Positions 5,089 to 26,393 of a stretch of 32,000 nucleotides of DNA are shown in pieces; position 1 is the stretch's first letter, and every line of letters starts with the position of its first letter. A program made the translations under genes and the position numbers. The stretch comes from Vibrio vulnificus CMCP6 (GTDB lineage: Bacteria > Pseudomonadota > Gammaproteobacteria > Enterobacterales > Vibrionaceae), in the NCBI RefSeq assembly GCF_000039765.1, contig NC_004460.2, forward strand, positions 1,170,001 to 1,202,000, written 5' to 3'. The notes under the pieces are model-generated. The model was given only the letters and a program-made list of their open reading frames with translations, ran no database searches and was not told where the DNA came from.

Positions 5089-5103
5089 CAAAACACCTTT
5101 TCA
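5089..5103. promoter_or_regulatory. KdgR-like box A (CAAAACACCTTTTCA) upstream of the GH88 gene
   Basis: Lies in the AT-rich 5' region of ugl, about 110 nt upstream of ATG 4979. It is near-identical to box K upstream of kduD. It is one of 11 related boxes in the window. Confidence 0.45.
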
Positions 5104-5120
5104 ATTTAAATTTTAATTTC

Positions 5121-5148
5121 AAAAAAAAAGCTGACTAGCAGCTTTTTC
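5121..5148. terminator. Bidirectional rho-independent terminator after kduD
   Basis: AAAAAGCTG-ACTAG-CAGCTTTTT, a stem flanked by an A-run and a T-run. It starts 11 nt beyond the kduD stop. Confidence 0.7.
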
Positions 5149-5158
5149 TTGCAACCCA

Positions 5159-5920
5159 CTAACGGGCTAACCAACCACCATCAACAGCGATGGTGTAACC
5201 ATTTACATAGTCAGAAGCGGACGATGCCAAGAACACGACAGGGCCAGCAAGATCACTGGGTAATCCCCAACGCTGCGCCGGAATGCGTTCTAAAATCGCT
5301 TGATTGCGTTCAGCATCGGCTCTGAGCGCCGCCGTGTTATTGGTGGCCATATAGCCTGGAGCAATGGCATTGACATTGATCCCCTGCGATGCCCACTCGT
5401 TAGCCAGCAAACGAGTGATGCCCATCACGGCACTTTTCGACGCAGTATACGAGGGAACACGAATGCCGCCTTGGAACGAGAGCATCGAAGCGATGTTGAT
5501 GATCTTGCCGCCAGACTGCTGCGCTTGAAACTGGCGAGCCACCGCTTGAGCTAAGAAGAACACGCTCTTGGCGTTGAGGTTCATCACGTCATCCCAATCT
5601 TGCTCACTGAAGTTGATCGCATCTTCACGACGGATAATGCCCGCGTTGTTGACCAGAATATCGATGCGTCCTGCTTGGGTAACCGCACGATCAACTACGG
5701 ATGCAATCACAGAGGCATCACTGAGATCCGCCACAATCGAGTAAAAACGGCGGCCTGTGGCTTCTATCAATGCGGGGGTTTCATCCGGCCCAGCGTAGTT
5801 CACGCCAACAATGTCACAACCCGCTTGCGCCAGCGCCACTGCCATGCCTTTACCAAGACCTGTATTGCACCCTGTGACAAGCGCCACCTTACCGTCTAAA
5901 TTGAACGCCTCTAAAATCAT
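5159..5920 (-). CDS. kduD: 2-dehydro-3-deoxy-D-gluconate 5-dehydrogenase (SDR family)
   Basis: 253 aa. Near-colinear with E. coli KduD as I remember it (MILxAFxLxGKVAxVTGCxTGLGxGMA...IINIASMLSFQGGIRVPSYTASK...YVNGYTIAVDGGWLAR). AAGGAA SD precedes the ATG. Confidence 0.95.
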   Translation of the reverse strand: MILEAFNLDGKVALVTGCNTGLGKGMAVALAQAGCDIVGVNYAGPDETPALIEATGRRFYSIVADLSDASVIASVVDRAVTQAGRIDILVNNAGIIRREDAINFSEQDWDDVMNLNAKSVFFLAQAVARQFQAQQSGGKIINIASMLSFQGGIRVPSYTASKSAVMGITRLLANEWASQGINVNAIAPGYMATNNTAALRADAERNQAILERIPAQRWGLPSDLAGPVVFLASSASDYVNGYTIAVDGGWLAR

Positions 5921-5978
5921 TATTCCTTTCCTTTTTATTCTGCTCCCTTCAAAAAGAAGAAAACCTCTTCAAATAAAT

Positions 5979-5993
5979 CAAAACCACTTTTCA
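5979..5993. promoter_or_regulatory. KdgR-like box K (CAAAACCACTTTTCA) upstream of kduD
   Basis: Lies 59-73 nt upstream of the kduD ATG (5920). On the minus strand it reads TGAAAAGTGGTTTTGA, compared with TGAAAAGGTGTTTTGA for box A. Confidence 0.5.
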
Positions 5994-6050
5994 TCCCATT
6001 CTCAGGCGAAAATTTTTTGCGCATTGCGCGGCAAATCTGCCCGCGAAAAA

Positions 6051-25048: not shown

Positions 25049-25058
25049 TCACCGTCAG

Positions 25059-25087
25059 GCCAGAGTGACATCATTGTTCACTCTGGC
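25059..25087. terminator. 10-bp inverted repeat at the convergent sulfatase-1 / anSME junction
   Basis: GCCAGAGTGA-N9-TCACTCTGGC. The loop contains the anSME stop codon and the right arm is coding. There is no U-tract, so terminator function is uncertain. Confidence 0.3.
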
Positions 25088-26282
25088 GCAAAAACTGACG
25101 GTAAGAGGAAGCAGGCAATTGACGACGCAGGCACTCTCCCATTGCGCGAAGGTAAGGCTGGATATGCGAGAAAAAGGCAAAATACCCCGCGCAGAGGTAG
25201 TGTTTCGCCGTTAACGACAGCTCGCCATTGTCATCGATACGTTGGGCTGGGCAAGCCCCATGACACAAATGACGCTGGCTGCACCCTTGGCAATGCAGTT
25301 GGCTTCCCATGGGTTTGCGCAGAGAAAACTGCTGCTGAATGGGGGTTTCAATCAAGTCGGGATAATCTCGCTCGCGCACATTGCCCAGCTTAAATTCAGG
25401 GTAGACGAAGTGATCGCAACTATACGCATCGCCGTTGTGTTCAATTACCAGATTATCGCCACATTGCGGTGCATGCACACAAATGGATGAAGGCATCCCC
25501 AGTTGCATGCCCAAAGCGTTATCAAAATGACTGACAAACACTTCCCCCATGTCGTACTGACGCCAAGTTTCAAACACATCAATCATAAATTGACCAAATT
25601 GCTCGGGGGAAACGCTGCGCGAAGAGACCCCCTCACCTTTGACCGGCTCGACAATAGGAATGAACTGAATAAAACGTGCGCCCAATGCTTTTAAGTGCTG
25701 GTAGACCCTTTTGCCATCCGCACCATTGTGGTTTTGCACCACCGTCAGCACATTGAATTCGACTTGATGCTTTTGCAATACCCGCAAGCCGCGCACCACC
25801 TGATCATAAGAACCTTTGCCACTGCGTGTTTTGCGATAGTGGTCATGCAACTCTTTATCCCCATCAAGGCTAATGCCCACCAAAAAGTGGTGGCGACGAA
25901 GAAAATCCCCCCACTGATCATCCAGCAGTATCCCATTGGTTTGTAAGGTATTGACGATCTGCATGCCTGCCCGCGCGTGTTTGCGCTGCAACGCCACCAC
26001 GCGTTGATAGAATTCGACGCCTCTGAGCGTCGGCTCACCGCCTTGCCAACCAAAAGTCACTTCAACACACCCCGCAGGCTGACTTTCAATATAACTTTTG
26101 ATGTGCGCTTCCAAAGCGTCATCACTCATGTCAAAGCGCTTGGTTTGCGGATAATACTCGGTTTTGTCTAGGTAAAAGCAGTAATCGCAATCGAGATTGC
26201 AAACCGGACCAATCGGTTTGGCAAGAACATGGAACGGGCGTTTTGCTCGTGGCTTGGTAACGGGGATGTGTGCTGGTTGCAT
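25071..26282 (-). CDS. Anaerobic sulfatase-maturating enzyme (radical SAM / SPASM)
   Basis: CNLDCDYCFY (CX3CX2C) near the N-terminus. C-terminal Cys clusters (CVHAPQCGDN..., SCDHF..., HCQGCSQRHLCHGACP) are typical of anSME/SPASM proteins. Confidence 0.92.
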   Translation of the reverse strand: MQPAHIPVTKPRAKRPFHVLAKPIGPVCNLDCDYCFYLDKTEYYPQTKRFDMSDDALEAHIKSYIESQPAGCVEVTFGWQGGEPTLRGVEFYQRVVALQRKHARAGMQIVNTLQTNGILLDDQWGDFLRRHHFLVGISLDGDKELHDHYRKTRSGKGSYDQVVRGLRVLQKHQVEFNVLTVVQNHNGADGKRVYQHLKALGARFIQFIPIVEPVKGEGVSSRSVSPEQFGQFMIDVFETWRQYDMGEVFVSHFDNALGMQLGMPSSICVHAPQCGDNLVIEHNGDAYSCDHFVYPEFKLGNVRERDYPDLIETPIQQQFSLRKPMGSQLHCQGCSQRHLCHGACPAQRIDDNGELSLTAKHYLCAGYFAFFSHIQPYLRAMGECLRRQLPASSYRQFLRQSEQ

Positions 26283-26331
26283 TCGCCTATCTCAACAAGT
26301 AAGTAACTTTGTTAATTTTACTTATTTTTTT

Positions 26332-26367
26332 TAAAACATCTTTTTATTTTATTATCACTGTGATCAA
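26332..26367. promoter_or_regulatory. Conserved ~36-bp control module, copy D (box D1 TAAAACATCTTTTTA + TTTATTATCAC-N-GATCA)
   Basis: AAAACATCTTTTTATTTTATTATCACTGTGATCAAT. It aligns to copies B and C with a 1-nt shift. It lies 50 nt from the anSME start. Confidence 0.45.
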
Positions 26368-26378
26368 TGACAGGTTTT

Positions 26379-26393
26379 TGAAACATCATTTCA
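26379..26393. promoter_or_regulatory. KdgR-like box D2 (TGAAACATCATTTCA) upstream of sulfatase 2
   Basis: The best match in the window to the remembered KdgR consensus core TGAAACAnnnTTTCA. It lies 51-65 nt upstream of ATG 26444. Confidence 0.55.

Follow-up and report, generated by a model that had tools for sequence, protein, structure and literature searches.

Predicted KdgR operators throughout the glycosaminoglycan utilization island of Vibrio vulnificus

Eleven copies of a short palindromic box occur in the intergenic DNA of a 32,000-nucleotide stretch of the Vibrio vulnificus CMCP6 genome (contig NC_004460.2, positions 1,170,001 to 1,202,000; hereafter the window). We consider it probable that these boxes are operators of the IclR-family repressor KdgR and that this protein controls the island in which they lie. 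The window is best read as a chondroitin-sulfate/glycosaminoglycan (GAG) utilization locus, namely V. vulnificus genomic island XII. Its genes code for two PL8 lyases, an unsaturated glucuronyl hydrolase (ugl), a DUF2264 protein, three sulfatases and their radical-SAM maturase (anSME), an Opp-type ABC importer, a porin, a methyl-accepting chemotaxis protein (MCP), a SulP transporter, KduD, and a lacto-N-biose (LNB) phosphorylase with GalT and GalE. The best description of the sequence is a set of about ten putative transcription units, each with one to three boxes that overlap or abut candidate core-promoter elements.

All eleven boxes had been listed in a first-pass annotation made from the sequence alone, and each was found at the position and with the sequence given there. 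The mismatch counts of that list were reproduced for the consensus RAAAYRNYRTTTYA: none for the boxes at 10172, 10836 and 26379, two for the box at 5979, and one for the other seven. A literature search for the consensus string gave no match. The boxes form the inverted repeat (T)GAAA(C/A)-N3-GTTT(C/T)(A), and many of their left halves are degenerate and read AAAAA. They had been listed on the plus strand; the coordinates hold, but because the boxes are palindromic the strand carries no meaning.

The motif was examined with a palindromised 21-nt position weight matrix, built from six candidate sites at the canonical V. vulnificus kdg locus (L068-L070) with the window excluded. At that locus kdgR is divergent from kduD-ygjV-cupin-rpiB/DUF3666, with kdgK-kdgA and a pectate lyase gene nearby. 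Of the six candidate boxes (L068), the kduD|kdgR spacer holds three; the others are single boxes upstream of kdgK, of pectate lyase (2) and of the DUF294 gene that lies downstream of kdgR. In the intergenic DNA of the window, the matrix recovers exactly the eleven boxes, with scores of 9.5-20.6 bits, and no other intergenic site reaches 8 bits. Applied to E. coli K-12, the same matrix finds two sites in front of kduI and a single one in front of kdgK. That canonical KdgR targets of both V. vulnificus and E. coli share this box supports the assignment of the window boxes as putative KdgR-type operators. A further match of 15.9 bits (AATTAAATCGACGTTTTGTAA) inside the E. coli K-12 kdgR coding sequence (L067:4831) is probably due to chance.

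Enrichment was evaluated against shuffles in which each intergenic region was permuted separately with its dinucleotides preserved. The literature core RAAAYRNYRTTTY, allowing at most one mismatch, occurs 11 times against 2.08 +/- 1.40 expected, and none of 500 shuffles reached 11. The matrix, which is blind to the window, finds nine sites of at least 13 bits against 0.146 expected (maximum of two in 1000 shuffles) and seven of at least 16 bits against 0.03 expected (1000 per-region shuffles). The intergenic set wrongly took in window positions 1-1488, which are coding, so the null was only made more generous. For comparison, 38.7 kb of V. vulnificus DNA that belongs neither to the island nor to the kdg cluster (6.0 kb of it outside open reading frames, ORFs) holds three non-ORF matches of at least 10 bits, with a top score of 13.1 bits. 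In the 2.6 kb of non-ORF DNA of the window there are ten matches of at least 10 bits, a density about 20-fold higher.

The first-pass annotation had cautioned that AT-rich intergenic DNA inflates chance matches, and had proposed a comparison of box density with unrelated DNA of the same genome. The six box-bearing regions do have only 28-39% G+C. The bare pattern AAA-N7-TTT is not enriched in the intergenic DNA of the window relative to the shuffles, which places the signal in specific positions rather than in A/T tracts. Chance matches or generic promoter A/T tracts can be regarded as already refuted, with a negligible probability left to them: the shuffles never reach the observed counts, sites are far sparser in other DNA of the species, and the boxes keep fixed positions across species while their flanks diverge. 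The caution is thus removed by the per-region shuffles and the 38.7-kb comparison.

Evidence on the last of these points comes from 14 orthologous loci retrieved from other Vibrio species for footprinting. In the locus labels used below, L011 is V. floridensis, L012 is Vibrio sp. YIC-376, L013 is V. hepatarius, L018-L020 are V. penaeicida and a related Vibrio sp., L021 and L044 are V. plantisponsor and Vibrio sp. Y2-5, and L016 is a metagenome-assembled genome; L001, like L068-L070, is V. vulnificus. Boxes are found at fixed distances from orthologous start codons in up to 10 Vibrio species (upstream of the first permease gene, perm1, and of the DUF2264, porin, ugl, anSME and sulfatase-2 genes). 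Mean column conservation inside and outside the box is 0.86 versus 0.58 at perm1, 0.81 versus 0.65 at DUF2264, and 0.77 versus 0.52 at anSME. Between the window and L012, changes within boxes are confined to the central N3 and spare the half-sites. Among V. vulnificus loci covering each site, nine boxes are identical, while in most strains 1-2 nt are changed in those at 5979 and 10116.

The sulfatase genes and the maturase gene carry several of the boxes. The box at 26379..26393 (20.6 bits), the best palindrome of the set and nearly perfect (TGAAACATCATTTCA), is located 58 nt upstream of the sulfatase-2/sulfatase-3 operon, is directly followed by TATAAT (26396-26401), and is kept in L011-L013, L015, L016, L022 and L023. 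Its neighbor at 26332..26346 (17.8 bits) lies 57 nt upstream of the anSME start at 26282 on the minus strand and is kept in L011, L012, L013, L015, L022 and L023. Between the DUF2264 and sulfatase-1 genes there are three boxes. The one at 23450..23464 (19.1 bits) belongs to the DUF2264-SBP operon (SBP, substrate-binding protein), 70 nt upstream of the start at 23387 (minus strand), and has an equivalent at -70 to -76 in every species with DUF2264. The box at 23556..23570 (16.9 bits) directly follows a TATAAT hexamer (23549-23554), about 19-25 nt before the sulfatase-1 start codon, and equivalents occur 176-177 nt from DUF2264 in L011, L013, L015, L022 and L023. Between these two, a weaker box at 23483..23497 (10.8 bits) is present in L011, L012, L013 and L023 and degraded in L015, L016, L021 and L044.

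Transport and uronate-processing genes have boxes as well. The box of the perm1-perm2-ATPase-MCP operon (18893..18907; 18.8 bits) lies 175 nt upstream of the start at 18725 (minus strand), with an equivalent at -156 to -175 from perm1 in every locus carrying that box (L011-L015, L018-L020, L022), V. penaeicida included. The porin box (10836..10850; 13.3 bits) is 71 nt upstream of the start at 10914 (plus strand) and has equivalents at -71 to -82 in L001, L011, L013, L014 and L023. Upstream of ugl, the box at 5089..5103 (18.5 bits) is centered 102 nt before the start codon at 4994 (minus strand) and stands directly 3' of a promoter-like TAGTCA-16-TAAAAT; it is the same in six V. vulnificus strains and is kept at -102 to -110 in L011 and L012. 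A weak box at 5979..5993 (9.5 bits) is located 66 nt upstream of the kduD-like start at 5920 (minus strand). On the SulP side there is a pair. The box at 10116..10130 (14.7 bits), about 350 nt upstream of the SulP-galE-galT operon, abuts a minus-strand promoter-like TTGATT-17-TATAGT (10109-10081) and is kept in L001 and L011. The second, at 10172..10186 (18.2 bits), is the same in six strains, is kept in L011, and has an equivalent site of 20.2 bits in L012. These two had been assigned to the SulP/porin region; the sites themselves hold, while the gene assignment is less certain, being deduced from position.

A twelfth KdgR-type box (AAATAAAACGCAATTTTATAT, 13.4 bits) was found just past the window, at L007:14227-14247 (about window position 32160), roughly 117 nt upstream of the gene for the 858-aa PL8 lyase. 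Therefore, the last transcription unit of the island is also covered.

The boxes lie 19-175 nt from start codons, with the exception of the SulP pair (about 350-400 nt). Those at 26379 and 23556 touch perfect TATAAT hexamers, and several others adjoin or overlap -10- or -35-like hexamers. In the perm1 (18873-18868) and DUF2264 (23430-23425) promoters, an invariant, -10-like TCTAAT is found 19 nt from the box in all species. Judged by sequence, these positions would fit steric repression. Downstream of the SBP gene there is an intrinsic-terminator-like hairpin (19622..19646, minus strand), an 11-bp stem followed by TATTTTATTT. This strong terminator sets DUF2264-SBP apart from the permease operon, which accounts for the separate box at perm1.

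The first-pass annotation noted that the window lacks a regulator gene, and a tblastn search of the window with E. coli KdgR indeed gave no match. Within 10 kb on either side in related strains, there is no regulator except a strain-variable TetR gene and an AsnC-type gene near putAP. The latter, beyond the PL8 lyase and near an SSF-family transporter and putA, was taken as part of a proline-utilization system. The TetR gene was rejected as island regulator because its deletion in the window and in several strains has left the boxes unaltered. In the orthologous loci the picture is different. Twelve of the 14 contain a KdgR orthologue, 67-70% identical to E. coli KdgR over its full length (tblastn) and encoded just past the ABC ATPase/MCP genes, with HTH_IclR and IclR_C domains (Pfam). 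Across the window and the 14 loci, tblastn found kdgR missing only from the window and its two nearest relatives, V. floridensis (L011) and YIC-376 (L012). The absence of a local kdgR is therefore peculiar to the V. vulnificus clade and not a property of this type of locus. No other regulator is conserved in the flanks of the related strains and the orthologous loci.

In the metagenome-assembled genome L016, kdgR is also flanked by genes for an oligogalacturonate lyase (ogl), an SSF transporter, a pectinesterase and KdgM, with KdgR-type boxes adjoining the SSF-ogl pair and kdgM. Given these pectin-gene flanks with their own boxes, this kdgR looks like a resident KdgR rather than a specialized paralogue. 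In six species, a weak but conserved box, T[AG]TAGAACATTATTTTA[AG]AT (8-10.6 bits), occurs 143-160 nt upstream of the locus-encoded kdgR (L013:13922, L015:13991, L017:2342, L018:12158, L022:11967, L023:14012), which suggests an autoregulatory operator. In V. penaeicida and the related species (L018-L020), the perm1-perm2-ATPase genes and kdgR remain and the perm1 box is intact (20.2 bits); no SBP, DUF2264 or sulfatase gene was found near these loci. Transporter and regulator may together form the conserved core of the locus.

A KdgR gene elsewhere in the V. vulnificus genome had been proposed as a check, and a protein named KdgR [Vibrio vulnificus] (P0344) was found at another locus, beside kduD, kdgK and kdgA. 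Vibrio KdgR sequences fall into two clades: the locus-encoded type, whose members are 79-99% identical to one another, and a pectin/oligogalacturonate (OGA)-linked type that takes in the V. vulnificus and V. parahaemolyticus proteins and is 65-70% identical to the former. E. coli KdgR and the locus-encoded Vibrio proteins have the same recognition helix, SKSTVYRFLQTMKTLGYV, and the corresponding helix of V. vulnificus KdgR is SKATTYRFLQTMKSLGYV. The best 120 matches of a protein homologue search with E. coli KdgR were all enterobacterial or unnamed sequences, none of them assigned to Vibrio. The canonical-target matrix, the footprints, the linkage of kdgR to 12 of the 14 loci and the KdgR encoded elsewhere in V. 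vulnificus together argue for the KdgR-operator reading that the first-pass annotation had put forward.

In V. hepatarius, kdgR lies between the MCP and porin genes (L013:14083-14871). In some V. vulnificus strains the same slot holds genes for an HPP membrane protein and a TetR protein (L001:2402-3495), and in the window tblastn with these two proteins detected remnants of the HPP gene (residues 73-149) and the last 16 TetR codons (12428..12714). We read this as replacement of the regulator in the slot, followed by decay of the replacement. These remnants bear on an alternative in which the boxes are relics: the V. vulnificus clade would have lost its local kdgR to the HPP-TetR pair, nothing would bind the boxes, and the island would be constitutive or otherwise controlled. 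The restriction of the loss to the window, L011 and L012 and the different clade of the resident KdgR point in the same direction. We nevertheless regard relic operators as unlikely. The boxes are intact in three species without the local gene and identical or nearly so across V. vulnificus loci, and the changes between the window and L012 fall in the non-specific center. The helix of the resident KdgR is all but identical, and the box recurs at the targets of this protein itself. Moreover, a subset of island XII genes, especially the arylsulfatase cluster, was upregulated in human serum according to passages of PMC4260858; therefore, the island is regulated.

A second alternative is that a different factor with a similar A/T-rich palindrome acts on the boxes, alone or together with KdgR. 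Such a factor could be an IclR paralogue or the reader of a second conserved element, TGATC-N5-TATCATAAA(T), located directly upstream (in gene orientation) of the promoter-proximal perm1, DUF2264 and anSME boxes (18908-18930, 23465-23482 and 26347-26366; orthologues in L011-L023 and L044). In the DUF2264 promoter this element, which contains GATC, is more invariant than the box itself across nine species. KdgR does not explain the element, and the left half-site of the boxes is often AAAAA rather than GAAAC. The involvement of another factor is improbable in our judgment, even more so than relic operators, since the same box is found at canonical KdgR targets in V. vulnificus and E. coli, and it co-occurs with kdgR in 12 loci. 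The locus holds no other conserved regulator. CRP was considered as reader of TGATC-N5-TATCA and rejected: the spacing is wrong for the CRP consensus, and matches to TGTGA-N6-TCACA with at most two mismatches are not enriched (10 in the window against 17 expected). A single one of these ten, at 10158, falls in a promoter region.

If KdgR does act on these boxes, a dimer on TGAAA(C/A)-N3-GTTT(C/T)A would occlude RNA polymerase. Breakdown of GAG would yield unsaturated uronate, which would pass through 5-keto-4-deoxyuronate (DKI) and 2,5-diketo-3-deoxygluconate (DKII; KduD) to 2-keto-3-deoxygluconate (KDG). KDG releases KdgR in Dickeya and E. coli, and its release of KdgR here would induce the whole island by its own end product. 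The island has kduD and lacks the isomerase gene, kdgK and kdgA, which belong to the canonical KdgR cluster elsewhere. Co-regulation is metabolically necessary because these genes lie in the core KdgR regulon and not in the island, and control by KDG would link the two halves of the pathway. In the V. vulnificus clade the operators would most likely be served in trans by the chromosomal KdgR (P0344); this is plausible since the helices are nearly identical and the same box is found at the targets of each protein. The first-pass annotation had extended the regulon to the sulfatases, the anSME, the importer and the porin. Boxes are indeed present at these genes, and their regulation by KdgR is a prediction.

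Several observations weigh against KdgR control of the island, or of parts of it. The six training sites of the matrix were chosen with the consensus of the first-pass annotation, and are thus independent of the window but not of the motif hypothesis. Least secure among the eleven is the box at 5979, with 2 nt changed in four of six V. vulnificus strains. Those at 10116 and 10172 stand 350-400 nt away from the SulP start, and no start codon is close to either. Scans for sigma-70 consensus promoters in the window gave counts at chance level, so that the promoter registers given above are guesses. In L021 and L044 the anSME/sulfatase-2 and perm1 boxes are lost although kdgR is in the locus, and the wiring of the regulon is therefore not uniform. 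For the window's own strain, a kdgR gene is presumed from its presence in the species (P0344 occurs in 27 blocks of the assembly collection, and the gene is described in the literature on strain MO6-24/O). Finally, the V. vulnificus KdgR shows three differences from the locus-encoded type in the helix stretch (S->A, V->T, T->S) as well as differences in the effector domain, and equal operator affinity is therefore an assumption.

In L021 and L044, a terminator-like hairpin stands in place of the perm1 promoter module, and only the DUF2264 box is kept.

The gene order of the window equals the list for genomic island XII (VV2_1090-VV2_1111) in the available passages of PMC3091676. According to passages of PMC3091676 and PMC4260858, this 33-kb region XII was described by Cohen et al. 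(2007). The content given in the former comprises galT2, galE2, a sulfate transporter, an MCP, an ABC ATPase, two permeases and an SBP, and also a COG4289 protein, an arylsulfatase, an "arylsulfatase regulator", two further arylsulfatases and a chondroitinase. The "arylsulfatase regulator" is the anSME. The nearest GTDB species representative is V. floridensis (97% identity on the ABC ATPase), and the exact KduD protein of the window is present in 164 blocks of the assembly collection.

On the minus strand, the window begins with the first 496 codons of a PL8 lyase that runs off its start (1-1488). This stretch encodes the N-terminal 496 residues of a protein 98% identical to a 683-aa protein of L001, and the ORFs listed within it at 10-321 and 874-1419 are spurious. 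The lyase is followed by the lacto-N-biose phosphorylase (1557-3755), the GH88 hydrolase gene ugl (3810-4994), the kduD-like short-chain dehydrogenase/reductase gene (5159-5920), galT (6051-7181), galE (7129-8145) and the SulP gene (8148-9857), all on the same strand. The OprD-family porin gene (10914-12353) is on the plus strand. Further minus-strand genes encode the MCP (12814-14760), the Opp-type ABC ATPase and two permeases (14852-18725), the family-5 SBP (19679-21598), DUF2264 (21666-23387) and the anSME (25071-26282). Sulfatase 1 (23582-25048) and sulfatases 2 and 3 (26444-29400) are encoded on the plus strand, and the second PL8 lyase (858 aa) extends on the minus strand from 29477 to past the window end, with its start beyond 32000.

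Some features of the locus lie outside the question of its regulation. The presence of an LNB/galacto-N-biose phosphorylase (1557-3755) together with own copies of galT and galE (6051-8145) within a chondroitin locus suggests that a GalNAc-containing disaccharide is processed by an unusual, phosphorolytic route. For DUF2264, the precomputed annotation now has the Pfam label "BcGHD". The SBP and perm1 genes are separated by a spacer of 953 bp (18726-19678), compared to about 130 bp to 4.7 kb (L014) in other species, and its middle part holds no ORF of at least 65 aa and no Rfam match; an Rfam scan of the whole window also gave no match. The intergenic region 9858-10913 (1056 bp, 34% G+C) contains a 59-codon ORF on the minus strand (10131-9952), whose ATG start lies inside the box at 10116, and a GC-rich hairpin, agagcccc-ttat-ggggctct, near 10508-10527.

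A kdgR mutant of V. vulnificus MO6-24/O forms more biofilm and is sensitive to bile, and the text describing it makes no mention of chondroitin (PMC11797071). Passages of PMC3091676 count MO6-24/O among the clade-2 strains that carry island XII. We give about even chances to a wider scenario in which a horizontally acquired clinical-strain island lost its own kdgR and kept all the operators, the core KdgR of the other clade took over, and expression of the chondroitinase, the sulfatases and the importer during infection is governed by KDG levels via a repressor of the pectin pathway; the phenotypes of the MO6-24/O mutant would then perhaps be due in part to derepression of island XII.

Overall, the sequence comparisons support a well-founded prediction of new targets for a known regulator, rather than a new kind of system, with operators that would persist after loss of the local kdgR. 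In Dickeya dadantii and E. coli, KdgR is an IclR-family repressor of pectin and hexuronate catabolism, with KDG as inducer and an operator of the AATRAAAYRNYRTTTYA type. The palindromic box and the recognition helix of the locus-encoded Vibrio KdgR are shared with that regulon, as would be the overlap of operators with promoters, kduD as a target, and the logic of induction by an end product. In contrast, the other predicted targets in the window are animal-GAG functions, none of which belongs to the classical pectinolysis regulon, and the V. vulnificus island itself has no kdgR.

Closer at hand, a KdgR regulon of V. vulnificus and V. parahaemolyticus was predicted for oligogalacturonate genes (Rodionov, Gelfand and Hugouvieux-Cotte-Pattat 2004, as cited in passages of PMC6537148). 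It shares with the present prediction the organism, the presumed regulator (P0344) and the box at kduD|kdgR, kdgK and pectate lyase, but as cited there it is described for pectin/OGA genes. We found no open-access paper linking KdgR to chondroitin, GAG or sulfatase genes in Vibrio, although the 2004 regulon or RegPrecise may list such sites. In the available passages of three island XII papers we found neither a regulator nor an operator of the island, which these papers regard as a virulence-associated marker; a role in sulfate scavenging or tissue invasion is proposed there.

Few gene blocks set clinical V. vulnificus apart from environmental V. vulnificus, and island XII is one of them. If the prediction is true, a regulator, an operator map and an inducer (KDG from host GAG breakdown) would turn this marker island into a regulatory circuit, and the KdgR regulon would extend from plant pectin to animal glycosaminoglycans, sulfatases and their maturase included. 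The island would also show plainly how a transferred locus can function in the absence of a regulator of its own, by way of a compatible host paralogue. Other GAG loci are controlled differently: the streptococcal hyaluronate locus has the LacI-type RegR, and the Bacteroides chondroitin polysaccharide utilization locus has a hybrid two-component sensor. Lyase, unsaturated glucuronyl hydrolase, sulfatases, import and the route from DKI to KDG are common to these loci and the island. Whereas the former rely on oligosaccharide sensing or a dedicated local regulator, the predicted signal for the V. vulnificus island is the downstream common intermediate KDG, perceived through a regulator shared with pectin catabolism.

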